A stretch of DNA of 64,000 nt, taken from Eledone cirrhosa. Taxonomy: Eukaryota. Of the stretch, positions 13,469 to 42,636 are shown piece after piece. Position 1 is the stretch's first letter. Each line of letters begins with the position of its first letter. The translations under genes were made by a program, and so were the position numbers. Location of the stretch: assembly GCA_964016885.1 (NCBI GenBank), contig OZ024742.1, forward strand, positions 74,648,001 to 74,712,000, in the 5' to 3' direction. The notes beneath the pieces are model-generated. The model saw only the letters and a list, made by a program, of their open reading frames with translations. It was not told the origin of the DNA and searched no databases.

Positions 13469-13483
13469 AATGATAATAATAAT

Positions 13484-14640: not shown

Positions 14641-15115
14641 GTTATCGTTCAGGATCACGGTCTCCTCGAGGGCGTAATTACTTCTTCCCATCACATATCC
14701 TATATAGAATGGTAGTGCAGACGTTCCAGTGACGGCATTGCTGGAGAGGACTATGAACCGCAGACGTCAGACGCCCAATCCTGGTGTTCGTTTGACGTAG
14801 GATTACAGTTCCGCCAAAGAGATGAGCTGTAGGAGAGTGTGCTTCACAAACGGCAGACCACATATGCTCACTGACTTAGAATCTCGGTAGATGCTGCAGC
14901 TTACACATCTTAAGCCATGGTGTACGAAGCCTTCCACGGAGAGGGTGTTAGCAGCAGATAAACCTTCTGACCATGGGAGACTGATCTTTCAAAGATTCAC
15001 ATTTTAATTTTATGTTCAACATATTCTATTTTGATATTCATGGAAAGCCATTAGCTAGAAAAAGATTATGATAATTTTTAAGTTAAACTTTTAAAATGAT
15101 TAGAGAATACATTAC

Positions 15116-17130: not shown

Positions 17131-17162
<32 letters not shown>

Positions 17163-17164
<2 letters not shown>

Positions 17165-20100
17165 TTTCTTTATTAACCACAAGGGTTTACATAAAGTAGA
17201 CATTAAGGACAGTGCTGGACAATGCAGGACGGTACAAATGGGCATTTCTGCGTGTAAAAAACAAAAACAGAGGATGTAACAAAAATAACAATGAAAATAA
17301 CAATGAAAAATTCCCCAATAGGGGGGAGACTTCGGAGGGACATTTGTGGAGAAAGCCCAGTAAAAGGCCACAGTGACCCTGACCACCAAGGCAAGTGCCT
17401 TCTCCCAGTTTTCCACCTTTAATTTACAGACACATACTCATAGTAGGCCCATTCACTCGGGCCATTCCTGCTTCTCTCACCCATCTTTCAACAAAATGCT
17501 GGGAAGAGAGCACTTCCCTCTCTACTCTGATTTTCCTTTTCAAATGAAATTTGAAAAAGTCAATCAGGGCATCACCGAAGAGGTAAGTGCTCGTCTTCAG
17601 CCCTTTCAAACGTGTCCACCATACTATCTCTTTTGCCATGGCCACCAGACAGATAAAAACTGCCTGCCCTTCCCGGCTAAAGGAAGAGGGCGGGGCAATC
17701 CTCACGATGGACTCAGATGATAGCCGGATCCGTCCTACATGCGACAGCAGGTGTTCGAAATAAACCCACAAGTCAGCAATTTTCGGACACTAGACGAGTG
17801 CGTGCAGGACGGTTTCGTCGCCCTGCGCACATCTCGGACATGTCCGGCTGACGGCACCTCCATGCCTGTAGAGTTTATCCCGAACTGGCAAGGCTCCTCG
17901 GTAGCACTGCCAGGCCAGGGATTTCTGGAAGTTGTCCATAGGTCCCGGCCCGAAAGTTCTTCCGAAGAGATTGGCTAGTTGATTTTCGTCGACGTCTAGA
18001 GTTTCACCAAGTACGTCGTCGCTCTTCCCCTCCACTAATCCTCTATAGAACGCCGACCTGGAGTTTCCAACGATCACATTGCCCGATTGGTCGAGGGCTG
18101 TGAGCGCCTGAAGACATTCCAGTCTACAGGCGCTCCCTCTCGGTCTTCGCTTGACACCGGACTGCAGCTCCGTCAAGGAAACGAGCTGGGGAAATACGTG
18201 TCTAGCAAACGGCGACCACACCTGATCACCGTCGAGGAAGAGGTGGAGATGTCGTAGTCTGAGCGCGTGTCTGCACATCATCAGCCAAGGCGTGTCCAGC
18301 CCTCCACGTAACGGGTGTTGACAGCAGATGCACCGCCTGACCATCGGAGCGCGTCCCTTCCACAAAAAGCGAAAGAGCAAACGCTGAAGCGCTGTCAGGC
18401 GGGGCTTAGGACAAGGTACGACGGTCAGGCGGTAGTAGATGACGGACGCGATGTACGCGTTAGCCACCTCCGCTCGACCTTTCAGGGATGGTTTCCTCTC
18501 CGCCCATTTCTGGGTGAGAGAAGCCACCCTGCTCGTCACCTCGTCCCAGTTTTTGTCCGTCTGGAGGTCGGGACCGAACCAGACCCCTAGCAATTTAACC
18601 GGTCCGTCCGTCCAGCGCCCGACGACGCTGTTGGACAGCATGGACCTGCCTCTCCAGGTGCCGAGCTGCAGGCCCACTGACTTTTCCTGGTTGATCATTG
18701 CTCCTGTCACCGCTTCGTATTCTCTTAGTGTAGTGTCGATCGCCTCGATGTGTTTGGCGTTCGACACCACTACTGTGACATCGTCCGCATATGCTGACAC
18801 GGATATTCCTCATCCTAATTCGCGCGGGACCCCCCTCAACGTCTCCAGTTTGTGCAGTAATGACTCGAGAGTCAATACGTACAAGAGGGACGAGAGGGGA
18901 CATCCTTGGCAGACCGAGCGCATGATGTTGAACGGTTCCGAAAGGTGACCGTTCACTCTCACCACAGAGCAGATGTCGCTGTGCATGGCAGCGATCCAGC
19001 CTCTGAAGACGGGCCCAAAGCCAGCCGCCCTCAGGACTGCCGCTAGGTAACGATGGTCGACCCTATCGAAAGCTTTCGACTGATCTAAATTGATCAAGGA
19101 CCCTCCCGTGCCAGGTTCCCTAGCTACCCTCTCTACGATGTATCGCATGAGGTGGAGGTTGTCGTGGATGGATCTGTCGAGAATGGCGCATGTCTGCGAC
19201 TGTCCCACCAGACCACCAACGACTAGCGCCAACCCCTTTGCTAGCACCTTGGCCAAAATCTTGAACTCTGTGTTTAGCAGATTTATGGGCCTAAAATTAT
19301 CTGTTATCCCCCTTGTTCGGATCCTTTCTCAGCAGCGCCACTGCTCCTCGGCTCACAGAGCTGGGAATTCTTCCGATCTGTTGCCAGTTGCAGTAGACGT
19401 CCGCCAAGAGGCCTCCGAACAAGTAAAGTTCATAGGGCAGACCATCCAAACCAGGCGATTTACCCCTTGTGCAGCCAGTCATTGCCTCCCGTACTTCAGC
19501 GGCTGTTATCGGCTTTTCGCAACACTCCGCCTCAGTGGCAGAGAGCCGCGGCAGTCCGTCGAGGTAGACACTAAAGTCCATCCCTCGATCCGGCCCGCCG
19601 CTGCCCCCGTACAGTTGAGCGAAGTGCCGCTGAAAAGCTTCACACATTTGCCCGGGACCGAGTAGCATGCGCCCGTCGTGGTCCACCAAAGACCGGATCG
19701 TGGCTTTGTTGCCACGACGCGCCTCCGCCACTCGACGCATTGAACGGCTTTCGTCCCCTCGTGTCTGAGAGCACGCACCCTAGCTCAGACAACGCAGCCT
19801 TCGTGCTTTGCATTGAAGAATTGGTCAAGGGCCAATTTCGCCGCAAGTACGTCGGTCGCGATGCCTTTGCTAAGCGCCTCGTCTAATTTTCTAACTAATT
19901 CTCCCTCTGCTCTATTTTTCTCTATTGCTAAAGCCCTACTAAACCTAATGGACTCTATTCTAATTGCTCTTTTCAGACCAAACCACCACTTGTTGTTGAC
20001 GATGGCCCCCGTCAACGCCCGCTTAACTAGTTCGCTAATCCGGTCTCTGTAGGCCTTGCGCGCTGGTAAGGACGCGTTTAGCTTCCAGTAGCCGGGTCCT

Positions 20101-23049
20101 CGTCTATGAAGCCTATCTAAGTCAAGCACACAGATCACTAATTTGTGGTCCGTGTAGCTGACTATCTTGAATTGTGGACAGCCTATGCAAGACCAATCTA
20201 TTTCCCTACAAAATACTCTATCTAGATATGATCTGGATGACCCTATGCGATTTGTCCAAGTCCACATTGGCACATTCGAGAAATCCAATCGGTACCTGTC
20301 AGACAGTTCAAAACGCCTGAGCAGGTTGGTGAGACTCTTGCACCCTCCTCCCCTATCCACTAATCCCACACAGTCCCAGCGCGCATCTAAGATCCCGTTC
20401 CAGTCGCCCACTAACACTAAAGAGCGGGACGTTCCAAGAAAAGTCTCCAGACGCCGGAAGAAATCAGGCCGCCCTGCACCTGTCGAGACATAGACGGCCA
20501 CTAGCCTGAAAGCTTGCCTGTCTCCGCTGGTCACGTCCAGCAGCACCAACTTACCTTCTGGGTCCAGGAAGATGGCCCGTATGGCAAGATCCAAACCTCT
20601 CTGAAAAAGCACAGCAACTCCACCCCCGATCCTGGACGGCTGGGAGATGTGTACACATCGTAGCCGCCGGAGATCGGTGCGAAGGCTCTTGCTTCGGAGA
20701 TTCTGGTCTCGTTGATGGCCACTACATCTATGTTTAGTGACCTGAGGTCGTTGAGCAGGTGGCCCTGCTTCCTTGACGACCCCAAGCCACGCGCATTTAT
20801 GCTGCCTATTCTGAGTGAGGTCATGTTGAAATGGAGTGGAAAAGATGGGAAAGACCACTTACCTTACTTCTCGTAGAAGAAGGACGGTTTCTCCATCCTT
20901 TTCAATACTTGTGGCCTCCTCAGGAAGGATGTCCTTATAAATCCTCCTGGAGAGTGCTTGTCGGAAGTCTCCGATGACTTTGGGGAATTTTTGTTTTAGT
21001 GTCATATACGTTTTCTGTGTGATGCGAGTGATTTGTATGTGTGGAGGTGGTGTGAACTTTTGGGTTGTTGTGTAGTCTTTTTCTGTGATGCTGGTGTTGT
21101 GTTGGATGTACTGTAATAATTGGTTGTTGTTCAAATTTAATGCTGTGTAGTGTGTATCGTTTTGGTTGTTTTGTTTTGTTTGTGTTTGTTTTGGGTTTGT
21201 TTCTGTTTCGCTTTTTGGTGACTTTTGTGGTGTAGGTGATGGTGGTGTTGGGGTTAATGATGGTGATGGTGTTGGTGTTTAGGGTGATGGGGTTGGTGAT
21301 GCTGGTGTGGATGGTGGCATATCTGTCCTAACTTTTTTGTTTGATAGTTTATTTGTTTCCCTCTGTATTTTGTTTTTGGAGGGGGAAGGAAGAGAATTTT
21401 TTCTCTTTTGGTTTCTTTTTTCTTTTTTCCTGATACCGTTTCCCACTCCTCGTCGTCACAATTTGTCTCCAGTTGTGATAGGCCGAGGAGTGGAAAATCC
21501 TCCACGGGCGTTAATTTTGGTTGTGGCGTGGTGGATGGTGTAGGCGCTGGTGCTAGTTCTGAAGCGTTGGGTGGTGGTGGTGTTGCTTTTGCTACTGTTG
21601 CTGGGGTTGTTGCTGTTATAGTTGCTTCTGTTGTTGCTGCTACAGTTGTTGCTGCCATCTTTGCTGGTGGTGGTGTTGATGGTTGAGTCACTGGGGTGGG
21701 TAGGAGAGGTGGCCTCAACCTTTTAGCCTGAGGGTAGAAAGCCATTAGGTGGGTTCCTTCACCCCAAACGACACACCTAGGCCTTCTACCCTCGACAATT
21801 ACGGTGAGGTGGCTGCCGTCAGTGAGGTCTATTACTTCTGGGATCTCCTCAATACTTTTTTGGTCCGCTTGGATCAGGAGCTCCATCCCAGATCCGGACC
21901 AGTTCTCCTGCTTTTCTTTCGCTATTGCTATTATCTTGGTGTTGGCTTCGATGCCGGCGAGGACGGCAGCTATTAGCCACGGAATTTCGATGGCCGGTGA
22001 AACGTGGGTCACCCTGATCTTTACGAGTCTCTGGCCACAATAGCTTGGGACGAGTGTGAAGTGGTTACATCTTAATGGGGCCATGGAGTGTTCTCTAGCC
22101 TCCTCTGGTGTTTCAAAGAACACGTCCACGGTTCCATACTTCTGCCCACGTCTGATGTGGGTTTTTCTTGCCCACACATGTCCCAAAGCTTTTTGGATTT
22201 GGGACTCAGATGCCCGTTCCACTCGGCGCGATTTTACATTAATTGTTCGAAAATACACGGTGCATAGGCGCCAATGCTGCATTTTATTAGATGGGGGTTG
22301 GGGGTTGGGAGTGGGGGGTGATGCTGACCCTGTACCCATCTTTCTTTACCAATATTTTGGCTTCTTCTAATTCCTCCTGAGTTACCTGAAATGCTTCGCC
22401 CTGTTTTGCTACTCTGGCAAAACTCAGGGTAGTTTTCTTAATGTCATTGTTGCTGTTGTTGTTATCGTTATTTTTGTTATTATTAATTTTAGTTTCAGTT
22501 GTGGTGGTGGTGGCGTCAGTGGTGTTCGGTGTGAAAGAGTTCATTTTGGTTGAATTCATTTCGACATCACGAGTTAATTTATTTTTTTCTTTTGTTTCTG
22601 TTGTCGCGGTGGTGGTGGGGGTGGTGGTTGTCGCGGTGGTGGTGGTGGCGGCGGCTTTAACACCTGCAATCATTGGTAATGGCGGGAAATGAATGTGTGC
22701 AGAGACAAATTTAAAATATTGCTACTGCTTAAATTTTTAGTGTTGGCAAACGTAGTAATATTTACAATGGTGGTGTCGGTGTGAGGTGTTAGTTTGTGAC
22801 GAAGGCTCTCAGTTGCTTGATGCAGAGGTGAATCAGCCATGAGTTTTTCAAAGAAATTTTTTGATAATCATAAAAGTTTAAATTTTGGGCACAAGGCCCC
22901 AATCTTTTTGGGTGCCCTTTTCGGAAAACAATGTATGTGTGCTTATATACAGTTAACAATAAAAATTTTCTATAAATGGCAATTTTAACAAACGGAAACA
23001 ACAAACCTTTGCGGAGCTCACGATGATACGATTTACTACGTAGGTCGCC
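17163..23049 (-). mobile_element. Tx1 family A, copy A2 (full length, frameshifted)
   Basis: Same termini as A1. ORF2 ATG at 20824, stop at 17424. Preceded by (AAT)10 at 17133-17162 and followed by (AAT)22 at 23050-23115. Confidence 0.95.
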
Positions 23050-23118
<69 letters not shown>

Positions 23119-23120
<2 letters not shown>

Positions 23121-25578
23121 CCAGACACAACCAGAAGATGCTGTTTGGACAGCTTGAGGGGAAAGAAAGAGGCAACGACTTGATCCCTGGGGCGGAGCAA
23201 ACTAAAACATTCTGGAGAGGAATATGGGAGCAGGATGTTAGACACAATGCCCAGGCAGGGTGGATTGAGACAGTACAGAGGGAGATCGGTGAGCAGGCAC
23301 AACAACAAACTGATTTGAGTATCACAGTTGAAACTCTTAAGGGGCAGGCCAAAAAACTAACCAACTGGAAATCACCAGGCCCAGATGGTGTGCAGGGGTA
23401 TTGGATTAAACATTTAACATCCCTCCACCCGAAGCTGACGGCCATGTTCAATGACTGCTTGGTGTCGGGTGAGGTGCCAGAGTGGTTGACAAAAGGTACC
23501 ACAGTTCTGATAATGAAAGACCAAATCAAGGGTAATGATGTTACCAACTATAGACCTATCACATGTCTGTCCGTAATGTGGAAACTGTTGACGAGCATTG
23601 TGTCTGAGGAAATCTACCATCACCTCCACACAAACAACTTGTTACCGGACGAACAGAAAGGATGCCGAAAGAAGTCACGTGGTACAAAGGACCAGTTACT
23701 TATTGATAAGATGGTAATGGGGAATTGCAGGAGGAGACACACTGATCTTGCCATGGGATGGATAGACTACAGAAAGGCATTTGACATGGTGCCTCATTCC
23801 TGGATCACCAAAAGCCTGGAGATCTTCAGGGTGGCAGATAACATCAAACAGTTGCTAGGCAGGAGTATGGGGTCCTGGGAGACAGAGTTGACATCAACTG
23901 GAGTATCCTTGGGAAGCGTGAAGATCAAGAGAGGTATCTTCCAGGGAGATAGCCTGTCCCCTCTGTTGTTTGTCCTTGCCCTGATGCCCTTGACCATTAT
24001 GCTGCGAAAAGTGAGAGCAGGATACAAGTTGGGAAGGGGAGAGCTTACCATCAATCACCTCCTCTTCATGGACGATCTTAAGCTCTTCGGGAAAAGTGAG
24101 AAGGAGTTGGATGTGCTTGTTGACACTGTCCGTATTTTCAGCAGTGATATATGTATGCAGTTTGGTATTGGTAAATGTGGAGTCATTGTGATGAGGAGGG
24201 GTAGGTTGAGCAGAAGTAACGGGATCCAGATACCAACAGGTGAGATGATAAAGGAAATTGACTCTGAGGAAGAATACAAGTATTTGGGCGTTCTGGAGGC
24301 TGATGGCATAAAGAACAAAAAAATGAAGGAATTGTTAAGAACTGAATACATTCGGAGAGTAAGGAGCGTATTGAAGTCACATCTGAACAGCAGAAATGCC
24401 ATAAGCGCAGTAAATTCCCGAGCTGTGTCTATTATTAGGTACAGTGCGGGAATTCTGAGATGGAATGTTGCTGAACAAAAAGAAATGGATAGGAAGACTA
24501 GGAAGCTATCGACTATCTACAACATGTTCCACAAGAGGAGTGATGTCGATAGACTCTACCTAAGGAGATCTGAGGGTGGAAGAGGTCTTATCAGCATAGA
24601 GGACTGTGTTCAGATGGAGAAAAACAACCTATACAAATACGTGACCTATAGTAAGGAACCAATGCTCAGAACTGTACTGAAGGAGGGGACAGTAGGCCAG
24701 GGGATGTCCAAGGAGGAAATAACATCAAGGAGGAAGAGCAGCCTTAAGGGAAAATCCCTTCATAGTACCTTCTTTGAGAAAACTGAATTTAGAGATCCAC
24801 AGACATGGAACTGGTTGAGAAGAGGAGACCTCAAAAAGGCTACAGAAGGAATGCTAATGGCTGCGCAGGAGCAGGCCCTCAAAACGAAGTGGTTGAAGCA
24901 CCATATCTACAAGGAGGAGGCTAGCCCACTGTGCAGGATCTGTGGAGAGAGAGAGGAGACTGTGGCTCACATTGTGTCCGAGTGTAAACACCTAGCCCAG
25001 ACCCACTATAAGGGCTGGAGACACGATGTGATGGGCAGGGTGATCCACTGGCACCTGTGCAAAGTAAACAATCTACCACATTCTGAGAAATGGTATGAGC
25101 ATAGGCCAGAGGCGGTGATGGAGAACAATCAGGTGAAGGTACTGTGGGATTTTAGGATACAGACAGACAAAAAACTGGAACACAATAGACCTGACCTGGT
25201 GGTTGTGGACAAAGAAAAAAGATCGTGTCTGATTGTGGATGTGGCCTGCCCGTTCGACACGAGAGTGCAAGAGAAGGAGAGGGAGAAAATTAACCGATAC
25301 CAGGACCTAAAGTGGGAGGTGAAAAGGATTTGGAACTGCCATGAAGTCAAAGTGATCCCGATTGTCATAGGCGCACTGGGGACTATCTCCAAAAGTTTCC
25401 AGGGATGGTTAAAGAAAATCGGCCCCTTCACGCTTTTTGGAACGCTTCAAAAGGCATGCTTGCTTGGAACAGCAAGAACCCTCCGATACGTCCTGAATAT
25501 CTGAGGCTGCAGGTAGTGGCTTGATATTCAATCCAACGGACTTTCCAGTTAACCAACATCAATGACTGAGATTCAAGG
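23119..25578 (+). mobile_element. R4/Dong-type RLE non-LTR retrotransposon, 5'-truncated, young
   Basis: Flanked by AAT tracts; single ORF plus a 3' UTR of about 75 nt. Confidence 0.93.
23138..25504 (+). CDS. Reverse transcriptase - CCHC - restriction-like endonuclease ORF (788 aa, N-terminus missing)
   Basis: KSPGPDG, YRPITCL, IDYRKAFD, GIFQGDSLSP, LFMDDLKL, CRIC-x8-H-x4-C, RHD, RPDLVV...VDVACP...EREK; no stops or frameshifts. Confidence 0.93.
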   Translation: MLFGQLEGKERGNDLIPGAEQTKTFWRGIWEQDVRHNAQAGWIETVQREIGEQAQQQTDLSITVETLKGQAKKLTNWKSPGPDGVQGYWIKHLTSLHPKLTAMFNDCLVSGEVPEWLTKGTTVLIMKDQIKGNDVTNYRPITCLSVMWKLLTSIVSEEIYHHLHTNNLLPDEQKGCRKKSRGTKDQLLIDKMVMGNCRRRHTDLAMGWIDYRKAFDMVPHSWITKSLEIFRVADNIKQLLGRSMGSWETELTSTGVSLGSVKIKRGIFQGDSLSPLLFVLALMPLTIMLRKVRAGYKLGRGELTINHLLFMDDLKLFGKSEKELDVLVDTVRIFSSDICMQFGIGKCGVIVMRRGRLSRSNGIQIPTGEMIKEIDSEEEYKYLGVLEADGIKNKKMKELLRTEYIRRVRSVLKSHLNSRNAISAVNSRAVSIIRYSAGILRWNVAEQKEMDRKTRKLSTIYNMFHKRSDVDRLYLRRSEGGRGLISIEDCVQMEKNNLYKYVTYSKEPMLRTVLKEGTVGQGMSKEEITSRRKSSLKGKSLHSTFFEKTEFRDPQTWNWLRRGDLKKATEGMLMAAQEQALKTKWLKHHIYKEEASPLCRICGEREETVAHIVSECKHLAQTHYKGWRHDVMGRVIHWHLCKVNNLPHSEKWYEHRPEAVMENNQVKVLWDFRIQTDKKLEHNRPDLVVVDKEKRSCLIVDVACPFDTRVQEKEREKINRYQDLKWEVKRIWNCHEVKVIPIVIGALGTISKSFQGWLKKIGPFTLFGTLQKACLLGTARTLRYVLNI

Positions 25579-25608
25579 AATAACAACAATAATAATAATA
25601 ATAATAAT

Positions 25609-28600
25609 GATTTCACTTATTGGCCACAAGGGCCGACATATAGGGGACAATACAAAAGACTGGGACAGTGGGGTTTTACAGAAAAACCGAGTAAACAATA
25701 TGAATCTCAATAACAAAATAACAATAACAAAGTAACAATAAAGTAACAATAAAATTACAACAAGAAAAAAATTCCCCAATAGGGGAGATGACCACCTAGG
25801 GTTCGGTCAGGTACCCCACCAGTCCTGAACGACCCGACGCTTCGAGAGCACCCTGGAAGGGCATCCCTCTCCTCCTCAAATTTACCTACCTACAGCCGCA
25901 TGACCAGAGTAGGCCCACTCACACGGGCCATTCTACCCACATTCAGCCACCTTTCAGCAAATGTACTGGGAGGGGGGGAAGCACTTCTCTCTCCACCCTC
26001 ACCTTCCTTTCCAAGTGAAACTTGAAAAAGTTGATGAGGGATTGGCCGAAGAGAAAAGTGTCTGTCTTCAGTCCTTTCAGTCTCGTCCACCATGCGTAGC
26101 TTTCGCTACTGCCACCAGACAGAGAAAAAATTGCCTGCCCTTCCTGGCCAAAAGAAGGCGGCGGATCGATCTTCACTATGGACTCGGCCGATAGCCGGAT
26201 CCGTTCTACACGCGACAACAGCTGTTCAACATAACTCCACAAGTCAGTAATGCACGGACACTGGACGAGTGCGCGCAGAACGTTTTCGTCGCTCTGCGCG
26301 CATCTCGGGCAGGTCCGTCTGACAGCACTTCCGTGTCTGTAGAGTTTATCTCGAATCGGCAGTGCCCCCCGGTAGCACTGCCAAACGAGGGATTTTTGGA
26401 AATTATCCATCGTCCACGGCTCGAAAGTCCTCCGGTACAGACTGGTTAGTTCGACTTCATTGACTCCCAGAGCCTCTCCGAGTGCGTCGTCGCACCCTCC
26501 CACCACTAATCTTCTATAGAACTCGAGAGTGGAAGTTCCACTGACCGCATTGCTCGTCTCGTAGATGGCAGTGAGTGCCTGGCAACATTCCAGATGCCAG
26601 TCACCCAGTTTCGGTCTCTTCTTGACCCAGGACTGCAGCTCAGTCAAAGAAACGAGCTGCGGAAAGGCCCGTCTGACAAACCGCGACCACACCTGTTCAC
26701 CGTTTAGGCAGAATATCTGGAGATGCCGCAGCCTCAGCGCGTGCCTGTGCATCATTAGCCACGGCATGCCCAGCCCTCCACGTAGAGGGTGCTGGCAGCA
26801 GATGGAGCGCCTCACCAGCGGAACCTGACCCATCCACAAGAATTTGAAGAGGAGCGCTCCAAGATGGCGAGGCGCGAACGGGGGCAAAGGACGACAGTCA
26901 GACGGTAGTAGATGACGGACGCGATGTACGCGTTCGCCACCTCGCCCGACCTTTCAGTGATAGCTTCATCCCAGCCCATTTCTGGGTAAGACTGGCTACC
27001 CTGCCTGTCACCTCGTCCCAATTCTTATCCACCTGGAGGTCTGGCCCGAACCAAACCCCTAGCAACTTTACCGGTCAGTCCGTCCCGCGCCTAACGACGC
27101 TGTTGGACGGCATGGACTTGTCTCTCCAGGTGCCGAGTTGCAAGCCCACTGACTTTTCCGGGTTAAGTTTTGCTCCCGTCAACCTTTCATATTCCTCCAA
27201 TAAGTTGCCGACCACGTCGATTTCTAAGGTGTCCGACACCATCACGGTGATGTCGTCCGCATAAGCCGACACAGCCTTTCCGCGTCCCGGTTCGAGCGGG
27301 ATGCCCTGCAACAGCTCCAGCTTCCGCGATAAAGGCTCGAGAGTCAATACGTACAGAAGGGAGGAGAGAGGGCACCCTTGACGGACCGATCGGGAGACCT
27401 GAAACGGTTCCGAGAGGTGGCCATTAATTTTGACCATCGAGCAGGTGCCGCTGTGCATTGCAGCAATCTAGCTTCTGAAGACGGGGCCGAAGCCAGCCGC
27501 CTTGAGGACAGCCTCCAGGTATCGATGGTCGACCCTATCGAATGCTTTCGATTGATCAAAATTGATCAGAGCCCCACCGAAGTCAGGTTTATACCCTACC
27601 CTCTCTATGATGTATCGCATTAGGTGGAGGTTGTCGTGTATGGACCTGGTTGGGATTGCGCAAGTTTGCGCCTCCCGACGACAAGCGCCAACCACTTCGC
27701 TAACGCCCTGGCCAAAATCTTAAACTCTGTGTTGGGCAGAGTTATGGGCCTGAAATTGTCTAATGTGTCCCTCTTGTTCTCGTCTTTCATTATCAGCGTC
27801 ACTACGCCCCGGCTCACAGAACTGGGAATACTCCCGTTTTGCTGCCAGTTGCAGTAGAGGGCTTCGAGGAGATTGGAGAACAAGTCTGGCATATTTACGT
27901 AAAGCTCGTAGGGCAGACCATCCAAACCGGGTGACTTGCGCCTCATGCAGCTGACAAGGGCATCCTGAATCTCGGCTGAAGTAATTGGCCTTTCGCAGCG
28001 CCCAGCGTCAGCCGTCAAGAGTTGCGGCAAGCCATCAAGGTAGGGACGAAGTACGCCACCATCTCTGACCTGCCACTCCCCTTGAACAACCGAGCAAAAT
28101 GTTGGCGAAAGGCCTCACACATCCTCTTGGAATCGCTCAGCTCGTTCCCGTCTCGGTCCGTCAAAGACAGAATCGTGGTTTTATTACCACGCTGCGCCTC
28201 TGCCACGCGGGCCCATCAAACAGCTTTGGTTCCCTCGTTTCTCAGAGCACGCGCCTTAGCTCGACAATGCAACCTTCGTGTTTCGCATTGAAGAAATGGT
28301 CTAATGCCATTCTCGCCGCTAGCACATCAGTTGCAATGCTACTACCAATAGCCTCGTCTAACTTATCTACCAACTCCCCCTCCTTTCTATTTTTCACTAA
28401 CGCTACTTCTTTGCTAAACTCTATCGACATTACTCTAATCTCTCTTTTGAGATCCCCCACCATCTATTGTTGACGACTCCCCCTGTCAACTTTTTCTTAA
28501 CTAAATTGTTGACCTGGTCCCTGTAAGCCTTACGTGCCGGAAATGACATGTTTAGCTTCCAGTAACCAGGTCCTAACCTACGCGTCTTATCTAGGTCGAC

Positions 28601-31465
28601 CATACAGATCACAAACTTGTGGACAGCTTACACTATTTCTGTCTATTTTTCTAATGAATATCCTATCTATATACGATCTAGATGACCCTATGCGGTTAGC
28701 CCAGGCCCACACTGGCGCATTAGGGAAATCTAGTCGGTACCTGTCAGACAGTTGGAACTGGTGATCAGGTTCTTGAGGTTTTTGCACCCCCCGCTCCTAT
28801 CGGATACTCCCAGCGTGCGTCTAAGATGCCGTTCCAGTCCCCCGCTAACAGTAAAGGGCGAGACGTACCCAGAAAGGCTTCCAGGCGTCTAAAGAAGTCC
28901 GGCCGTCCTTCCCCAGTAGGAGCATAGACGCCCACCAGTCTAAAGGCACCACCTTCGTTATTGTTCACGTCCAGGACCACCAACTTCCCGTCCGGGTCCC
29001 GGAAGATCGACCTTACCTCGACATCCAGGCCTTTCCTAAACAGCACTGCCACCCCGCCTCCCATTCTCGGTCGGGAAAGATCTGATAGTCGTCGAAAATG
29101 GGGGCTAGTGCGCGCGTGTCGGAAATCTTGGTCTCGCTGACTGCAATTACACCCATTTCTATAGACCTGAGGTCGTTGTGCAGGTGACCCTGTTCCAGGA
29201 CGATCCCAGGCCTCGAACATTTAAACATCCTACTCTTAATACGGCCATGTTGGCAGGTTAAACAGAGAGAGAGGAAGGTTTACTTACCTTCTGGTCTCTT
29301 GTGAAGGTCGGGTTGTTCGACCTCCATAGTTAGTGGGGTTTCTTTTGGGAACCCCTTTAAAAGTCTTGAAGTGGGTTTTACGTTAGGGGTTCCCACGTCC
29401 CGAGGAAAGTTGTCTCGTATTTCTTTGAATATGTCGAGCGACATTCGCACCAGAACCAAATCTTCCGGCACGGGAAATGTGCTCGATTTAAAAATTTCCC
29501 CCTCTTTTTGTATATTTTCACTTCGTGCTACGAGGGCCATCAGTTCCTTGTTGGCCCTCCTGACGCGCACGAAGTTTTGTATGTTTTGTTGGTGTGATTT
29601 TATTTGTTTGCGTGGCTGTGGTGGTGATGGTTTTGGTGGTGTTGTTTCGGTTGTATCTGTGTTTGTTGTGAGTGCGATGTCTGTGGTTTCAGATGTTTGT
29701 GTGTATATTTGTTCTTGCGTCTGTTTCGGTTGTTTGCGTTTGGGGGATGCTGGTGATGGTGATGGTGCTGTTGATGTTGGTGTTATTGGAGAGATGTTTG
29801 CGTGGGTGGTCTCTGCGTTTTTTATTGTGGGTGCTTTTGTGCTTTGTTGAGTTTTTTTTTCTTTTTGTGTTTCCTTTTTTGTATTTTGGGGGATTTTGGA
29901 TTTTCCTCATCTTCACCACTGGTAGATGAGGGGTCTGTGTCTGTAAGTGTGTTTGTATGTATGTTTAAGGTTTTAATGGTGTGTGTATTTTTGCGGGGAG
30001 CGGGAATTTGACAGCTTTCCTGGTTTCCCCCCTGGGTGGTCAATGTTGGTGGTGGTCTTTCGATTGGTGTTGTTGTTGGTGGTTTTGCCGGTGCTGGTGT
30101 TGGTTGTGGTCCTCGCCCCGGCGTCGGCAGCAGTGGAGCCTTTCGACCCCTTGCCTCTTTCAGCAGTTGAGGGCAGAAGGCTTGCAAATGGGTTTTTTCC
30201 CCACAAACAAAACACTGCGGCCTTTTGCCTTCGGTCAAAATGTGAATGACCGTCCCATTCTGAAGGCGGATGTGGTCCGGGATTGTCTTCACATTCTCGA
30301 GCCTGATCTGGAGAAGGATCTCCAGGTCAACTCTGGACCAGTCCTCTCTGGTCGTTCTGGTCACTTCTATAGGGACTGTATCCTTCCCCTCCACAGTCAC
30401 ACATCCCAGAAGCCACCACATGTCAAGTCCTGGTGGAATTCTGGGAATGCGGAGACGGGCCGTTCTTTTTCCCATGTGGGAGGGGGTACATTAAGACCTT
30501 GCTGGTTTTGCAAGGAGTCATAGCGTGTTTCATAGCGAGGGCTTCTGACTTGAACAACACCGAAATGGTGCCGTACTGTCTGCCCCTCTCTATGTACTGG
30601 GTGTCTTCTCTGATGCACCTCAGCACGACTTCGACATCTTCTTGTGGGATTAAAGCTGCCCTTTTGGTTTGTGCTGAGATGCATCTATAATGCACCGTTT
30701 TGCGCTCCACTACTTCAATAGCTTCTACCGAGACAGTTAAGTTGGCCCAGGTTTTTTCTTCCTTGATGTGCTTCCATGCCTGGGCTAACTTTTCATCTTT
30801 GTTTTAGGGTTCCATGTTGAAGCATGGCTTCTTTTTTGCTGCTGCAGCAGCGAAAGTGTTTTTGTTGTTTTCGTTGGGGGTGTTGTTGTCGTTGTTCTTG
30901 TTGGTGTTGTTGTTAGCACTGTCGCTGTTATCATTGTTGTCTTTGTTGCCACCGTTGTTCTCGGTGCAGTTGGTATTGTTGCTGTTGGTGTTGTCGCTAT
31001 TTGTTATCATGTTAGTGGTGTTGATATTGTTGTTGCATTTGTTATCTTTTTTTTTGTTATCTGTATTTTCGTTGTTGCTGTTACTGTCATTTTTTTCAAA
31101 ATTAGAGTTCTCATTGTTATCATTGGTGTCTTTGTTTACCTTGTTTGTGGTGGTGTTTGTATTATCAATGTGTGTTAATTTCGCTGTAGCGCTCCTCTCA
31201 ACTTCTACGTCGTTGTCGCACGACAGCCGACATATCGCTGGGGGGCGTGGCTCAGCCATGTTTTTTTTTTCTTCGTAAATTTTTTAACATATAAAAAAAG
31301 TTCAAATATTTGGGCCAAAAGGCCCAAATATTATACTTTCCCCTTCACGGGGCAAAGTCTAAGGGCTTATATCCCTTACCCAACAAGAAATATTTAACAA
31401 CAAATAATTTTAACAGGCAAATAAAGCGACTTACTGTGAGCGAGCAAAATACGTCCGCTTAGACC
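25609..31465 (-). mobile_element. Tx1 family B, full length, degenerate
   Basis: 5' end (ATT)n-GGTCTAAG. ORF1 pieces at 31259-29280 with an Asn-rich N-terminus and CFVCGEKTHLQAFC. ORF2 ATG at 29248, YADD in 27075..27458, stop at 25890. Confidence 0.92.
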
Positions 31466-31489
31466 AATAATAATAATCATAATAATAAT

Positions 31490-32492
31490 TGTTTCTACTT
31501 TAGGCACAAGGCCAGCAATTACCCAGTGCATTACTGGTACTTTATTTTATCGACCCCGTAAGGATGAAAGGCAAAGTCAACCTCGGCGGGATTTGAACTC
31601 AGATCGTAAAGGGACGTAACTATGCTGGAAAGCATGGCGCCCGACCCTCTACCGATACTGCCAATCCACCAATAATAATAATAATAATAATTGTTTCTAC
31701 TTTTGGCACAAGGCCAGCAAATACCCAGTATATTACTGGTACTTTATTTTATCGAAGCCATAAGGATGAAAGGTAAAGTAAACCTGGGCGGGATTTGAAC
31801 TCAGAATGGCAAGGGCCATAACTCTATGCGTCCGACCCTCTACCGATACTGCCAATCCACCAATCCACCGCCCAATAATAATAATAATAATGCTTTCTTT
31901 ATTAACCACAAGGGTTTACATAAAATAGACATTAAGGACAGTACAGGACAATACAGGACGGTACAAATGGGCATTTCTGCGTGTAAAAAACAAAAACAGA
32001 GGACGTAACAAAAAAATAACAATGAAAAATTCCCCAATACGGGGGAGACTTCCGAGGGACATTTGTGGAGAGAGCCCATTAAAAGCCACAGTGACTCTAA
32101 TGATAATAATTGTTTCGACTTTTGGCACAAGCCCAGCAATTACCCAGTATATTATTGGTACTTTATTTTATCGACCCCGTAAGGATGAAAGGCAAAGTTA
32201 ACTTCGGCGGGATTTGAACTCAGATCGTAAAGGGACGTAACTCTTTGCGTCAAAGCATGGCGTCCTACCCTCTACTGATACTGCCAATCCACTATTAATA
32301 ATAATAATAATAATAATTGTTTCTACTTTTGGCACAAGGCCGGCAATTACCCAGTGCATTACTGGTACTTTATTTTATCGACCCCGTAAGGATGAAAGGC
32401 AAAGTTAACCACGGCGGGATTTGAACTCAGATCATACAGGGAGGTAACTCTATGCTTCAAAGCATGGCGTCCGACCCTCTACCGATACTGCC
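31490..32492 (-). mobile_element. Four tandem ATT-tailed SINEs (31490-31670, 31692-31873, 32111-32292, 32318-32492) plus a Tx1-A 3' UTR fragment (31892-32097), each separated by AAT runs
   Basis: Each SINE is the reverse complement of 62282-62468. The fragment matches 1078-1295. Confidence 0.93.
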
Positions 32493-32510
32493 AATAATAA
32501 TAATAAGAAT

Positions 32511-35500
32511 GGTTTCTTTATTGGCCACAAGGGTTAACATGAAGAAAAACATTAGAGACGGCACAGAACACTACAGTGGGTTTTGCTCGTGCAAATGCGT
32601 TATAACAAGATAGAAATCGGGATAGAAATAAAAAAAAATTCAAACAACAAAAATTCCCCAAAAAGGGGGAAACCTCCGAGGATCACTCGTGGCGAAAACC
32701 ACACAAAAGACCACGGCCAACCTGACAACCAGGGCAAGCGCCCTCTCTCAGTTTTCCCACTCCTCAGTCTACAGGCGCATACTCAGAGCGGACACGTTCA
32801 CTCGGACCAGACTCGCCACTTTCACCCACCTTTCAACAAACTTACTAGAAGACAGCACTTGCCTCTCCACCCTGATTTTCCTCTTCAAGTGAAACTTGAA
32901 AAAGTTAATCAGGGATTGGCCGGTGAGGAAAGTGTCCGTTTTCAACCCTTTCAACCTTGTCCACCACACAATCTCTTTCGCCATGGCCACCAGGCAGATG
33001 AACACTGCCTGCCCTTCCTCCTTTTAAAGGAGGATGGCGGAGCTATCTGCACAATGGACTCAGTCGATAACCAGATCCGTCCTACAAGCGACAGCAGCTG
33101 TTCGACATAGCTCCACAAGTCAGCAATCCTCGGGCACTGAACGTGCAGGACGGTTTCGTCGCATGGCGCACATCTCGGACAGGCTCGGCTGACAGCACCT
33201 CCGTGCCTGTAGAGCTTATCCCGAACCGGCAACGCTCCCCGGTAGAACCGCCAGGCCAGGGATTTCTGGGAGTTGTCCATAGGCCCCGGTCTGAAAGTTC
33301 TCTTGAAGATAGCGAACAGCTGATCGTGTTCGACGCCAGGGTTTCCCCAAGAACGTCGCCACTCTTTCCCTCCGTTAGCCCTCTATAGAACGCCTAGGTG
33401 GATGTTCCACCAATACTAGTGCCCAGCTGGTAGAGGGCGGTGAGCGCTTGGAGACATTGCAGCTTCCAAGCGCTATCCTTCGGTCTTTTCCTGATCCAGG
33501 ATTGCAGCTCCGTCAAGGAGACTAGCTGGGGAAAAGCGCGTCTGGCAAACGGCGACCACACCTGTTCACCGTCAAGGAAGCACCAGAGATGTCGAGCCTC
33601 AGCGCATGTTTGCGCATCAGCCACGGCATACCTTGTCCTCCACGCAACGGGTGTTGACAGCAAATCGATCGTCTGACCATTGGAGCACGTCCCTTCCACA
33701 AAAAGCGGAAGAGGAGGCGCTCCATTTTGGTGAGAATTGGGCCGGAGCAACGTACGCCGGCAAGGCGGTAGCAAATGACGGACGCGATGTACGCATTCGC
33801 CACCTCCGCCCGACCTTTCAGAGACAGCCTTCTCCCGGCCCATTTCTGGGTGAGAAAAACTGGAGCGAGGTGGCGAGCAGGGTGGCCTCCACCCTGCTCG
33901 CCACCTCGCTCCAGTTTTTCTCCATCTGGGGGTCCGGACCGAACCAGACCCCGAGCAATTTAACCGCCGTCGGACGACATGGACTTGCCTCTCCAGGTGC
34001 CGAGGTGCAAGCCTACCGACTTTTCCTGATTTAACTTTGCTCCTGTCACTGCTTCGTATTCCTTGAGAGCGGTGCCGAGCATCTGGACGTGCTTGGTGCT
34101 CGACACCACCACATTGACGTCGTCGTCGTAAGCTGACACGGATCTCCTGCATCCTAGTTCTCGTGGTATCCCCTTCATCGTCTTCAATTTGTGCAGTAAC
34201 GGCTCGAGGGCCAGTACGTACAAGAGGGACGTGAGGGGGCAACCCTGGCGCACCGAGCGCATGATGCTGAAAGGCTGCGACAACTGACCATTCACCCTCA
34301 CAATAGAGCAGATGTCACTGTGCATCGCAGCGATCCAGTCCCTGAAAATGGGACCGAAGCCAGCCGCCTCGAGGACTGCAGCCAGGTACCGATGGTCGAC
34401 CCTATCAAATGCTTTAGATTGATTCAAGTTGATCAGGGCCTCGCCCGTGTCAGGTTCCTTAACCACCCTCTCTATGATGTATCGCATGAGATGGAGGTTG
34501 TCATGGATGGATCTGTCCAGAATGGCGCATGTCTTCGCCTCTCCCACCAGATCACCGACGACAAGCGCCAATCTTTTTGCTAACACCTTCGCCAAAATCT
34601 TAAACTCTGCGTTTAGTAGAGTTATGGGTCTGAAGTTGTCTATAACGTCCCCCTTGTTCGGGTCTTTTCTTAGCAGAACCACTGCTCCCCGCCTCACAAA
34701 ACTGGGAATGCTCCCGTTCTGCTGCCAGTTGCAGTAGACATCTGCCAAGAGGTCGCCGAACAAGTCGGCATATACGCATAAAGCTTGTAGGGCAGACCAT
34801 CCAAACCTGGCGATTTACCCCTCGTGCAGTCAGACATAGCTTCCCGTATTTTACCTGCTGTTATCGGCTTTTCGCAGCCCTGCACTGCGGTCGGCGAGAG
34901 CCGCAGCAGTCTGTAGAGGTATGCACCGAAGTTCATACTCCGATCCGGCCCGCCGCCGCTCCCGAACAATTGAGCAAAGTGCTGTTGAAAAGCCGCACAG
35001 ATCTGTTCCGGTTCGAGCAACATGCGCCCGTTTTGATCAGACAAAGACCGAATTGTGGACTTGTTGCCACGTCGCGCCTCCACCATCCGGACCCATTGAA
35101 AGGCTTTCGTCCCCTCGTGTCTTAGAGCACGCGCTCTAGCCCTGACAACGCATCCTTCATGCTTTGTGTTGAAGAATTGGTCGAGTGCCAATCTTGCCGC
35201 AAGCACATCGGTTGCGATGCCTGTCCTAAACGCCTCTTCTAGCTTTCTAACTAACTCTCCCTCTACTCTATTTTCCTCTATCACTACTCCTTTGCTAAAC
35301 GTTATCGATTCTACTCTAATTGCCATTTTCAGGGTGAACCACCACCTGTTGTTGACGATTGCACCCGTCAACGCACGCTTAACTAATTCGCTAATCCGGT
35401 CTCTGTAGGCTTTGCGCGCCGCGAACGACGCGTTCAGCTTCCAGTAGCCGGACCCTTGCCTATCGAGTCTATCTAAGTCTACTCCACCGTGTAGTCGACT

Positions 35501-36610
35501 ACTTTAAATTGTGGATAACCTACACTAGCCTTATCTGTTTCGCTACAGAATACCCTATCTAAATACGATCTGAATGACCCGATGCGGTTTTCCCATGTTC
35601 ACATTGGCACATTCGGATAATCCAGTGTATACCTGTCAGACAGTTCAAAACGTTTGAGTAGGTTGTTGAGGCTTTTACACCCTCCTGCCCCGTCTACTAG
35701 CCCCACATAATTCCAGCGTGTATCTAAGATACCGTTCCAGTCGCCCACTAACATTAAAGAGCGGGACGTTCCAAGAAAGGTCTCTAGACGTCTGAAGAAA
35801 TCTGACCGTCCTGCTCCTGTTGGGGCGTAGACGGCTACTAGCCTGAAAGCATTGCCTTCACTGCCGGTCACGTCCAGCACCACCGACTTACATTCTGGGA
35901 CCAGGAAGATGTCCCGTATGGCGAGATCCAAGCCTCTCCGAAAAAGCACAGCAACTCTTCCTCCCGATCCTGGACGGCTGGGAGATGCGTATACATCGTA
36001 GCCACGGAAGATAGGTGCGAAGGCTCGTGCTTCGGAGATTCTGGTCTCGCTGATGGCCACCACATCTATGTTTAGTGACCTGAGGTCATTGAACAGGTGA
36101 CTCTGCTTCCAAGATGACCCCAGGCCACGTACATTTATACTGCCTATTCTAAATACGGCCATGTTGGATGAGGAATGGAGTAAGTGAGAAAGGATCACTT
36201 ACCTTGATCGTGTGGGGAAGGGACAGCAGAACCATCCCTTCGGCTGGTCATGGGTGTCTCCAAGACGATATCTTTATAGATTCTCTTGGAGCGTGACCCC
36301 CTGAAATTGTTGCTGTTGGGTGAATGTGTGCTTTGTTGTGTTTGCGATGTTGGTGTTTTTGATAATGTTGGTGGTGGTGTGGTTGTTGTTGGTGGTGATG
36401 CTTGTGGTGGTGATGGTGGTGGTGTTGCTGCAAGTCCCCTTGCAGTATTTATCCTTCTTTCTTTGCCTTCGCTTTTGGACGGAGAAACTGTAGTGTTTTT
36501 GCGTTTGTTCTTTTTGTTGAGAACCGTTTTCCACTCCTCAGCCGCCTCATACTCCATGTCCGACAGTGAGAGGTCGGGGAGGGGTATGAGTTCTACCCTC
36601 TCATTTGTCC

Positions 36611-36669
<59 letters not shown>

Positions 36670-38158
36670 GGTGGTGGAGCCTTGTCTGCGGTTCTTGGCA
36701 CAGGTGCAGCTAGTGCAACTGTTTCTGTTGCTGCAGCTCCCCCCGCAGTATTTGGTGTGGGTTCCAAGGACGTTGTCTTACTACATTCTGTAGAAGCTCC
36801 CGACTTTTTCGCTGACTGCTCTGATTCTGATGGCAGCGGTTCCGGCGTTGGAAGGAGGGGGACATTGGCCTTTGTTATTTTCTGTGAGCAGAAATCCCTG
36901 AGGTGAGATCCACAGTTGAAGCACTTTGGACGCCTTCCTTCAACAGATATGGGAAGTTGGGAGCCATTCCCGAGGTCTATTACGTCGGGAATAGCGCCGA
37001 TACAGTCCTGGTCGGTTTGGATGAGCTTCTCCATTCCAATACCGGACCAGTCATCTCTCCCCAACTTCTGTACCTGCAGAATGGTTGTTCTATCTTCGAT
37101 GCCCGCAAGAACAGAAACGACCAGCCAAGGCACGGGTACGTAGGGCGGGACCTGGGTTACGCTGACCTTTGAAATTTTTTCCCGCAGTAAAACGTGACTA
37201 ACATTATGTCATCACTCCGTAGGGTCTTCAGTGAGTGCGATTTTGCTTCCTGGGTGGTAGCAGAAAGGACGTCCATAGTAGCATATTTCTTGTCACGGGT
37301 GATGTGGGTTTTCCTTGCCCACACAATTCCCAAGGCCTTCAGGATTTGGACCTCCGAGGCTTTCTTCACACGACGCGATTTCATGGCAATCGTGCGGTAC
37401 GACACCGTGCGTCGCTCTTGCTCCTCCAGGAAGTCGGTTGGTGGTTTCAAGGACACTGAAAATTCAGTTCTGGTTACCACGTGTCTTGCGACCGCCATAT
37501 GCTCCTCTGTGATCATGACTGTTTCTACGTTGCGAGTCACCTTTGCAAAAGAGATGGTCTCTTTTTCAGTGGCGTCATTGTTGCCGCCGCTACTGCTGCT
37601 ACTGGTCTTGTTGTTGGTGCTGTTGTTGTTGTCACTGCTACAAACGGTGTTGTTGGTGTTGCTGCTGCTGCTAACACAGGTGTTATTGTTAATACTGCCG
37701 CTGCTGGTGCTACCTCCTTTGTTGTCAAATGCATCAGCAGTAACCGCTTCACGACCGCCGCTTGATGAAGAAGAGAAAGAAATGGCGTTCGCCTGACTTT
37801 CACTATGTGATGATGAAGAAGACGAAAAGGAAAGCGAGACTCCACGCTGACAGCTGAGTGAAGAAAGAGAAGGTTGAGAAGGATACCTTGCTGAATGGGT
37901 AATTTTTGTGTAGATACATGGCAGAGAAATAGATTTTTTGAATGACGCATTTTTGGGGGGGCGGGTCGTATTTGCTAAATGCAAAGTTCAAATTGGAATT
38001 TAGCCCCGAAGGGCTAAGTACCGATTAATTTCGACCACTTCAAAAGAAGCGGGGTGTATTTAAACACAAAATATAATTTTTTATAATAAGTTCACAATAA
38101 AAACTATTCAAAAATCACAAATTTACGGGAACAAAATTTCCTGCGATTGTATACTTCC
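32511..38158 (-). mobile_element. Tx1 family C, full length, degenerate
   Basis: ORF1 pieces 37157..37984 and 36195..37133 (CFNCG...HLRDFC); ORF2 ATG at 36162, stop at 32769; AAT at both ends. Confidence 0.92.
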
Positions 38159-39297
38159 AAAATAATAATAATATTCTTAATAATAATTAAAAAATTCTTA
38201 ACCATGCACAGAATGCATCACCCTAAGGCAGATACAGATAGAATATACCTCCCTAGGAAGGAAGGGGCATGGATTAATCCAGTTAGATATTTCTTTGAAA
38301 ACTGCAACAATTGAATTATCTACATATCTAAGGGAAACGCATGATTGGATGATCAAACTCGTTTTGAAACATGAAAGCACCAAAAGATCATACTCCAAAA
38401 GATGCACATAGATACAGTAATGAACTACAAATTTCAGAAGTACCATTTACTGCTGAAATGAAAAACAAAATGATGAAGGGGAAGAACTTTCTAAATCTTT
38501 GTACCCTACTAGCATCGTACTGATGATCAAAATGAAGGTGAAGCACTGCCTTTTTATGATGGGTACAAGTGGTAGTTTACCAGCAGCCTTTCTGTATATC
38601 ATGTTGTAGCTTCTAATGCTGCTTTCCTATCTTTTTAATTTTTTATTTCTATCTTCTTGTTAGGAAGCTTCTAGGATGTTTCTGCTATAAAAATGCACTA
38701 TATATGTTTTAAGCGCTGCACCACCACCTTGAAAATGTTCAGCAATGAAGCCTTGATGAGTATACTGCCAGGATTACCTTATGGTTCTTAATGTAAATTA
38801 AGCATTATATACTTCGAAACTTCATATATATTCAATACTTAGTTGCAGATACAAATGATACATTTCTTTTTGTAAATAATTTGCTTTTAAAGCAACCCCT
38901 ATGCAGGTAGCTAAAAGCAGCTACCCTTTATAAAGCTCATAAATTTAGAAAAGTATTTTCAGTCTAAAGCCTTTTGTTAATTCTTTATAGTTAGTTTGAA
39001 GAAAAGAACAAAAAACAAACAAAAACAAACAAAAAATAAACAAATATATTAGATCCATACTGTGCAATGGAGATATAGTAATAGTAATAATAAAGTATGA
39101 AAATTTAGTCGTCCCAAAGCAGATACCTATAATATTGATCACTAGTAATAATAGCATTAGGACGACTATATTTTCAAATTTCAAATTTCCTATGATCAAC
39201 TATTATATTATACTTATCTTCATTGCGACGACTTTCAAATTTCTCATCTGCATGTTTATGATAATAAAGTAATAAAGATAGCAAATGCGATACTCAC

Positions 39298-39631
39298 CAG
39301 ATTTCTTGCAGAAGCTTTCAGCGAGTGAATCTTTCTTTACAACGACTTTATCCTTCCATACATGGAACCTGGCACATATATTATTAGTAAACGTCACGCA
39401 TTGGCAGTCATCCTCGTAAGAACACATTATAGAACATACTCCCAAACTGATATTGCTTATTAATGGATAAGTACTGTTTTCGGGTGGAGAAATTTGAAGA
39501 CTTACAGAACTGGATAATTTTTGGAAAGAATTCTTGATAGTTTCAGATGAAGAATATTTTAAGTTGATTGCAAAGATGATAAAGGCAATTAATAGGAAAC
39601 ACTCTGCCAAATATTTCTTTGATCTTGCCAT
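39298..39631 (-). CDS. Host gene coding exon 1: signal peptide + PAN/Apple-like domain
   Basis: Acceptor ttgcAG two nt before the ATG; hydrophobic FLLIAFIIFAI; C-x3-C-x5-C...F-x4-C; donor G|GTGAGT; 334 nt, phase 1. Confidence 0.85.

Positions 39632-42583: not shown

Positions 42584-42636
<53 letters not shown>

Follow-up and report, generated by a model that had tools for sequence, protein, structure and literature searches.

We analyzed a window of 64,000 nucleotides from Eledone cirrhosa (contig OZ024742.1, positions 74,648,001 to 74,712,000 of the forward strand) that contains, at 17132-38172, an array of Tx1-like and Dong-like long interspersed nuclear elements (LINEs) and short interspersed nuclear elements (SINEs) joined by runs of AAT. 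Judged from its sequence, the array is likely to be a chain that arose by repeated targeted insertion, with two independent machines acting at one short motif. The best reading of these machines is that one is of the apurinic/apyrimidinic endonuclease (APE) type and the other uses a restriction-like endonuclease, and that they would act on opposite strands of one repeat.

Nine elements and ten AAT joints make up the array, and no element is nested in another (Table 1). AAT runs account for about 243 of its 21,041 bases (1.15%), yet all ten joints fall within them. Polarity is strict both here and in a second array of the window: the Tx1-like LINEs and the SINE end in (ATT)n, and the Dong-like LINEs end in (AAT)n on the other strand. 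Seven of the nine elements, at 25609-38160, stand head-to-tail on one strand. Neither outer flank (about 430 bases on each side) matches anything else within the 64-kb window, and no other repeat family was seen inside Tx1-A, Tx1-B and Tx1-C over the 3′ 3.7 kb, where the three align end to end and are 77-83% alike. The lack of nesting can be attributed to the shortness of the target, since four long element bodies hold zero to one ATTATT per strand. An earlier note on this DNA had given the order and coordinates of the elements and had held that none lies inside another and that every junction is AAT, and the sequence bears this out; its remark that these elements are absent from the (ACT)n, (CT)n, (TA)n and (GT)n tracts also holds in the window. 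The unique flanks that it described are found at the main array, as far as the window reaches, but the right border of the second array is the tail of an old SINE (8276-8340). Beside that border, three 3′ ends of older SINEs lie on the same strand within less than 300 bases (8276-8560). The two arrays are not a segmental duplication, as the elements alone match while flanks and order differ.

An AAT run at a head-to-tail joint is weak evidence of targeting when taken alone, because it comes from the tail of the neighbour. At seven of the nine Tx1 5′ ends in the window, three or more perfect ATT units lie within 5 bases, and the other two have a run that includes one ATC unit; outside the arrays, (ATT)3+ occurs at 48 of 47,406 positions (0.1%). 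Among these nine ends are three truncated ones, two at head-to-head joints of Tx1-A with Dong-like elements (23050-23115 and 1582-1603) and one at a flank without other match (38161). No tail explains the AAT runs at 23050-23115, 1582-1603 and 38161, and ATT is therefore a target beyond being a mere tail. Both Dong-like 5′ ends likewise lie in AAT. Furthermore, ATTATT follows the 3′ end of all eight young SINE copies, and the three isolated SINEs with both ends present are flanked by duplications of 18, 20 and 11 bp, each starting with ATTATT directly behind the last base of the SINE; two of these SINEs are without any extra tail. One of the three SINEs (57123-57310) splits a minisatellite (56947-57568) whose 27-bp unit itself begins with ATTATT. 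At the 5′ ends of the eight young copies, (ATT)3+ adjoins in four and lies at 14 bases in one, a further copy has two units, and two abut non-repeat DNA. Together, the Tx1 5′ ends, the SINE duplications and the flanks of a Dong-like relative in another contig (L081, described below) indicate that ATT/AAT is a target and that it is renewed on both sides with each insertion, as the earlier note had proposed. That note had, however, named the microsatellite as such as the target, which is not what was found: the target is the short ATTATT motif and does not have to be a microsatellite, at least in the case of the SINE. Targeting of the kind known from Kibi and Koshi was not seen, as no copy lies in the (CT)n or (TTTC)n tracts of the window and all lie in ATT. 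Beyond the arrays, the AAT rule holds in part: two smaller spots (13305-13680 and 59806-59884) obey it, whereas two SINEs (57123-57310 and 62283-62468) lie outside any AAT run and an insert interrupts the Tx1-C copy at 59884. This insert (61700-62597) is 898 bp long and A/T-rich and includes the SINE at 62283-62468; its remainder has no match in the window.

The SINE is a multicopy family of about 190 bp with target-site duplications. Its copies are 85-99% alike (seven compared), with S1 and the copy at 62283-62468 being 99% identical. A- and B-box-like words can be recognized by eye in its head; ARAGORN and Rfam find no tRNA. The last 30 bases align without gaps with the Tx1 3′ end, comprising a predicted 4-bp stem with a CUUGU loop, GAAA and the tail. 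The stem sequences differ while pairing is kept (AACC/GGUU in Tx1-A, GGCC/GGCC in Tx1-B and UGGC/GCCA in the SINE): 83.3% of 60 cells are paired, three of the four pairs are changed on both sides, and covariation is 0.486, compared with 0.19 in shuffles (0 of 500 as high) and at most 0.20 in slid registers (best of seven). Over the last 40 bases, the SINE is similar to Tx1-B (p 0.001-0.005) and Tx1-C (p 0.009-0.018), and comparison with Dong gave p values of 0.11-0.97. Since the SINE has this covarying hairpin of the Tx1 type, we take it to be likely a passenger of the Tx1 lineage, mobilised in trans. Dong was considered as the partner and rejected on account of its unlike 3′ end and opposite polarity. 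Searches of viral and prokaryote collections with SINE patterns returned nothing but one 22-base chance match. At 31860-32463, the SINE 5′ end is connected in contigs and reads with an earlier stretch of the SINE head, which points to variants in which a segment of the head is duplicated.

The Tx1-like copies encode an open reading frame 2 (ORF2) in which Pfam Exo_endo_phos and RVT_1 score above cut-off and GDWN, YLDR and TDH motifs are present; zf-RVT is above cut-off in Tx1-B and below it in the other copies. The ORF1 of Tx1-clade elements has an RNA-binding domain and a CCHC knuckle. Such a knuckle is present in Tx1-A2 and Tx1-B, occurs as a spacing variant in Tx1-C and is damaged in Tx1-A, and the Atlas look-alikes of ORF1 are CCHC-, RRM- and ZCCHC3-type clusters (0.90-0.94). 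A search of the PDB with the endonuclease piece of Tx1-C gave no match. Among the matches listed, the nearest protein group (P0186-P0221) is 40-46% identical, and the named match for ORF2, ‘Transposon TX1 uncharacterized 149 kDa protein’, is 33% identical. A reverse transcriptase (RT) tree was built from 55 rows (4 window copies, 31 of 80 metagenome loci, 18 of 120 listed proteins and 2 outgroups); reference L1, Kibi and Koshi sequences are not among them, and support for the deep branches is weak (80/60). In this tree Tx1-A, A2, B and C form one clade with P0185 (100/100), weakly sister to P0186-P0213 (80/60) and apart from relatives flanked by U2, 5S and tRNA genes, which are known Tx1 targets. 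The 80 metagenome loci are 23-44% identical and have different targets; of 20 scanned, the flanks hold U2 in five, 5S in two and tRNA in one. No Tx1 relatives were found in viral contigs. As the window families are one clade, the target common to Tx1-A, -B and -C is a matter of descent. The earlier note had assigned one target to three Tx1 families, two Dong families and a SINE; the common target stands, but convergence was overstated, given the single Tx1 clade, a SINE that is probably Tx1-carried and the TAA target already known for Dong. We accordingly think it improbable that five or six families each evolved (AAT)n specificity and that the whole array grew from one microsatellite. All array joints are indeed AAT runs, the outer ends of the main array are AAT beside DNA without other match in the window, and a pure-AAT loose end at 31891 may represent SINE 5′ ends in long AAT runs, although it is ambiguous; against this stand the one Tx1 clade, a SINE with a Tx1 3′ end that uses single ATTATT sites, and a second array that ends on a SINE tail.

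Several further observations concern Tx1-like sequences. The full-length copies and most SINE copies at 17163-38160 start with GG, TTGG or GTGG directly after the ATT run. Old, decayed RT fragments related to Tx1 ORF2 lie at 14638-14989 and 40191-40454. Three metagenome relatives (L007, L002 and L006) have U2-like stretches within their 5′ region, which recall the small nuclear RNA (snRNA) heads of Tx1-Mar, and L007 also has U2 genes at its ends. The contig of another relative (L047) ends in (AT)27 at the 3′ end.

The Dong-like copy at 23116-25587 has an open frame of 795 amino acids with RT, a CCHC finger and a PD-(D/E)xK-like motif. Among the matches listed, it is 68% identical to the full-length protein P0001, and its best solved-structure matches are R2 proteins, endonuclease stretch included. 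No named Dong/R4 reference occurs among the 120 matches listed or in the Atlas. Both Dong-like copies in the window are 5′-truncated and are 37% alike at the amino acid level in their common C-terminal part; both have AAT on either side and a (TAA)n tail. R4 elements, unlike R2, are not known to have N-terminal zinc fingers. None of eight full-length relatives (55-68% identical) has a CCHH or CCHC pattern in the first 380 residues; NeSL/Utopia elements carry N-terminal zinc fingers, and Hero also includes members that target microsatellites (PMC4640811). One Dong relative was found in viral contigs: at L081 2399-6370, an element of 31% identity stands between 17 and 98 AAT units with the same polarity.

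Contigs and reads from the species (four of six runs, at most three samples, of which X1 and X3 are two runs) were compared with 23104-36600. The matches comprised 274,919 and 288,791 contigs and 677,809 and 668,592 reads, and all 30 bins were covered. All four element kinds are multicopy families in the species. Joints from a SINE 5′ end through AAT to a SINE 3′ end were present in 151 (X1) and 147 (X3) contigs (sum of four joints, among the best 15 of 4,546), far exceeding the two dimers of the window itself. SINE dimers are thus common, yet many copies are solitary. A pure-AAT loose end at 31891, among the best 24 of 17,264 loose ends, collected 25,121 and 26,257 restriction-site-associated DNA (RAD) reads and is ambiguous, as bare AAT reads could produce it. 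No matching contig spans 23104-36600, and 7.6 kb downstream of the array there is a 200-N gap whose flanks are duplicated; still, we consider it highly improbable that separate loci were joined in assembly through common AAT runs. The AAT runs, at 12-66 bp, are shorter than any read, each copy has its own lesions, the same rule appears at four separate places in the window, and SINE dimers occur in independent contigs.

Several observations weigh against the proposed reading of targeted insertion by two machines. Of eight SINE copies, two are found outside AAT runs, and beyond the SINE 5′ end 904 contigs (X1) and 938 contigs (X3) continue into mixed A/T-rich sequence (agreement 0.48-0.49). At head-to-tail joints, which are the majority, the tail of the upstream neighbour suffices to supply the run, and just three Tx1 5′ ends are free of this confound; the joint counts from contigs and reads cover 23104-36600 except 25574-25618 and 31458-31496 (the Dong 3′ and Tx1-B 5′ joints). 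Between the SINE and Tx1-A, similarity alone does not reach significance (p 0.07-0.10). The hairpin is a short one, shuffles fold with equally good energy (z -1.2 to +0.1), its structure was read from the same sequences, related copies raise the covariation score, and a hairpin with an ATT tail at the 3′ end was seen in none of the 80 distant Tx1 relatives. The mixed SINE flanks and the short hairpin match would fit a reading in which ATT is a mere tail, elements with a weak A/T preference pile up passively where tolerated, and the SINE depends on another ATT-tailed LINE; in other clades, elements commonly have repeat tails but no strict targeting (PMC3747384). Passive piling predicts nesting in the 6-kb bodies, however, and would not place all ten joints in 1.15% of the bases. 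As the duplications start exactly with ATTATT, two SINEs have no extra tail and 5′-truncated ends adjoin ATT too, we regard this reading as quite improbable.

Target-primed reverse transcription is the established basis for the steps that we propose under targeted insertion. The predicted Tx1 APE endonuclease would nick the AAT strand after 5′-AATAAT, the following base being A or G in the three isolated SINE insertions. The (AUU)n end of the Tx1 or SINE RNA would then pair with the freed 3′ end (primer strand 5′-AATAAT-3′OH), and the Tx1 ORF2 reverse transcriptase would recognise the 3′ hairpin with its CUUGU loop; the SINE, having this hairpin, would ride in trans. A second nick 11-20 bp away would duplicate the site and leave ATTATT on both sides. 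The restriction-type endonuclease of the Dong-like element would cut the opposite strand and prime on the ATT strand, giving the opposite orientation and (AAT)n tails. Each insertion would add one target, so that chains would grow, with new copies landing between old ones and not inside them.

Growth by repeated insertion, as the earlier note had it, agrees with copies that differ in decay and with SINE head-to-tail dimers at many other loci. Decay ranges from the open Dong-like frame to Tx1-B with at least 6 frameshifts and about 4 stops relative to P0185; by the same comparison Tx1-C has about 4 frameshifts and about 2 stops, and Tx1-A about 2 and about 4 in the part aligned. Neighbouring SINEs are 89-94% alike. 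This divergence and the unequal decay suggest that the insertions occurred at separate times. They also make it unlikely that parts of the chain, above all S1-S2-fragment-S3-S4, were made in single events by template jumping or from read-through transcripts, with joints representing template tails. The head-to-tail series at 25609-38160, the frequency of SINE dimers in contigs and the template switching known for LINE machinery (PMC4494074) are compatible with such events, but template jumping cannot yield the two head-to-head joints or the opposite orientation.

Table 1. Features of the main array, the second array and other sites in the window.
Feature	Position	Strand	Remarks
(AAT)10	17132-17162		Left array end; Tx1-A 3′ tail/target
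Tx1-A, full length	17163-23049	-	ORF1 (CCHC-type knuckle) and ORF2 (APE, RT, zf-RVT)
Predicted Tx1-A 3′ hairpin	17174-17186	-	4-bp stem with CUUGU loop; position shared with Tx1-B, Tx1-C and all SINE copies
(AAT)22	23050-23115		Head-to-head joint, Tx1-A 5′ end and truncated Dong 5′ end
Dong/R4-like LINE with restriction-like endonuclease, 5′-truncated	23116-25587	+	Open frame 23117-25504
(AAT)7	25588-25608		Tail-to-tail joint, Dong/Tx1-B
Tx1-B, full length	25609-31465	-	Most decayed copy
AAT run	31466-31489		8 units including one variant
SINE S1	31490-31670	-	tRNA-type A and B boxes, judged by eye
(AAT)7	31671-31691		S1/S2 joint
SINE S2	31692-31873	-	
(AAT)6	31874-31891		Joint, S2/Tx1-A 3′ fragment
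Tx1-A 3′ fragment, 207 bp	31892-32098	-	5′-truncated
AAT-GAT-AAT-AAT	32099-32110		Adjoins truncated 5′ end of Tx1-A fragment; then S3
SINE S3	32111-32292	-	
(AAT)7	32297-32317		S3/S4 joint
SINE S4	32318-32492	-	
(AAT)4	32493-32504		S4/Tx1-C joint
Tx1-C, full length	32505-38160	-	
(AAT)4	38161-38172		At Tx1-C 5′ end; beyond it, DNA without other match in window
Second array	1-8275		Same AAT-joint rule as main array
Tx1-C-like piece (second array)	to 978	-	Then AAT33
Tx1-A 3′ fragment (second array)	1078-1581		Then AAT joint 1582-1603, head-to-head with Dong
Second Dong-like family (second array)	1604-2746	+	37% amino acid identity to first; then AAT6
Tx1-A2 (second array)	2765-8225	-	Then AAT13, tail of old SINE
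5′ fragment of fourth Tx1 subfamily (13305-13468) and SINE	13305-13680	-	SINE with 11-bp ATT duplication; AAT-rich spot
SINE	57123-57310	+	Within 27-bp minisatellite; 20-bp duplication beginning ATTATT, without AAT run
SINE 3′ fragment, (ATT)n and Tx1-C copy (from 59884)	59806-63623	+	Tx1-C copy interrupted by 898-bp insert
SINE	62283-62468	+	Non-repeat DNA; 18-bp duplication beginning ATTATT, without extra tail

HeT-A, TART and TAHRE form arrays at chromosome ends, run in one direction and replace telomerase. Like the present array, they are head-to-tail chains of several non-long-terminal-repeat families, many copies of which are 5′-truncated, and the earlier note had called its arrays reminiscent of HeT-A/TART, though interstitial. 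HeT-A/TART is rejected as a model: the array differs from them in being interstitial with ordinary DNA on both sides, in having two orientations, in needing an internal target and in giving no indication of a host function; closer parallels are the R1, P-element, jockey and hobo tandems and SINEU. In the R1 array and the P-element, jockey and hobo dimers, site preference and target-site duplication also lead to tandems with the target at each joint, but each involves one family, and unequal exchange makes the units near-identical (bioRxiv 10.1101/158386), whereas the chain in the window combines families of two clades, in both orientations, and gives no hint of duplicated units. In the SINEU/Tx1-Mar system of crocodilians, SINE and Tx1 families have a common target, and SINE tandems form around the target-site duplication by sequential insertion; SINEU, however, has an snRNA head, a poly(A) tail and a Mariner element as target, and the study found no LINE with the 3′ end of SINEU-1 (PMC4494074), while the window SINE has a putative tRNA-type head and a 3′ end that matches Tx1.

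Members of the Tx1 clade are often target-specific, and Dong targets TAA (PMC3812793, PMC4494074). The microsatellite targets on record for Tx1 are (TC)n for Kibi, (TTC)n for Koshi and (TTCC)n and (TTTC)n for crocodilian Tx1 (PMC3812793, PMC4494074). These are likewise two-ORF APE-type LINEs with the repeat on both sides of the insertion, but their targets are pyrimidine repeats, with ATT/AAT absent from the targets given in the sections available, and the window copies form a clade of their own in a tree that lacks Kibi and Koshi. From Dong of the R4 clade, which has a single ORF with RT, CCHC finger and restriction-like endonuclease, TAA on both sides and a (TAA)n tail, the window elements differ in nothing essential, except that the repeat is here also used by an unrelated APE-type element on the other strand. 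A TAA-targeting Dong, DongBg, is known from a snail (PMC3812793), and Dong-R4 is abundant and recently active in octopus (PMC13282606, PMC10294476). Stringent SINE/LINE pairs of the L2, CR1 and RTE groups (PMC3747384, PMC3472496, PMC4176376) have in common with the SINE and Tx1 a conserved loop, a variable paired stem and a short repeat tail; they differ in that none of 58 pairs has a Tx1 partner (PMC3747384, Table 1), and the common part in the window is about 30 bases. Three cases of SINEs with L1-clade tails are described, from plants and a green alga (PMC3472496), and recognition of a 3′ stem-loop by ORF2 has been shown for zebrafish L2 elements (PMC4176376). Dong-R4, L1-Tx1 and SINEs are abundant in cephalopod genomes, which have unexplained hot spots, and the available sections of these papers do not mention target specificity of the three groups (PMC13282606, PMC8967140, PMC10294476); SINEs make up about 11.6% of an octopod genome (PMC13282606). 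An ATT-targeting Tx1, a Tx1-tailed SINE or a mixed Tx1/Dong/SINE chain was not described in the literature searched, a scope that did not extend to Repbase and Dfam. The self-renewing target is an already known principle; what is new is probably the ATT-targeting Tx1 lineage, its encounter with Dong on the opposite strand and a SINE that probably has a Tx1 tail.

Other parts of the window hold features of a different kind. The stretch 42229-48722 contains a 200-N gap (45805-46004) with duplicated sides and resembles two haplotypes in series: 42229-43834 and 46005-47529 are 94% alike, and 44465-45804 and 47338-48722 are 95% alike. Within it, at 43584-44764 and 47326-47529, about six tandem units of about 120 bp start with (TAA)4 and are separated by varying (TA)n, with a period of 146-186 and one copy across the gap; possible origins are a tandem expansion and the stacking of a small element in (TA)n. 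Two broken frames at 50955-52538 appear Penelope-like in their motifs and have no Pfam match. On the minus strand, a frame at 39203-39742 has a hydrophobic start and contains several cysteines; it may be a host exon and has no Pfam or protein match.

On a wider view, which we advance tentatively and rate as somewhat short of probable, an undescribed Tx1 lineage that targets ATTATT, converging with Dong on the opposite strand, would be the stringent-type partner of a very abundant tRNA SINE by way of the CUUGU hairpin, which would make it the first Tx1-tailed SINE, and ‘rich-get-richer’ chains of this kind may partly explain repeat hot spots and AAT microsatellites. This does not imply a function for the host. 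The array would offer a natural test of an APE and a restriction-like endonuclease that read the two strands of one repeat. If the proposal is true, insertions per locus would follow preferential attachment as a clustering rule, the motor of a major SINE family would be named, and a Tx1 case would bear on whether L1-group elements were originally stringent retrotransposons that read a hairpin (PMC3472496).

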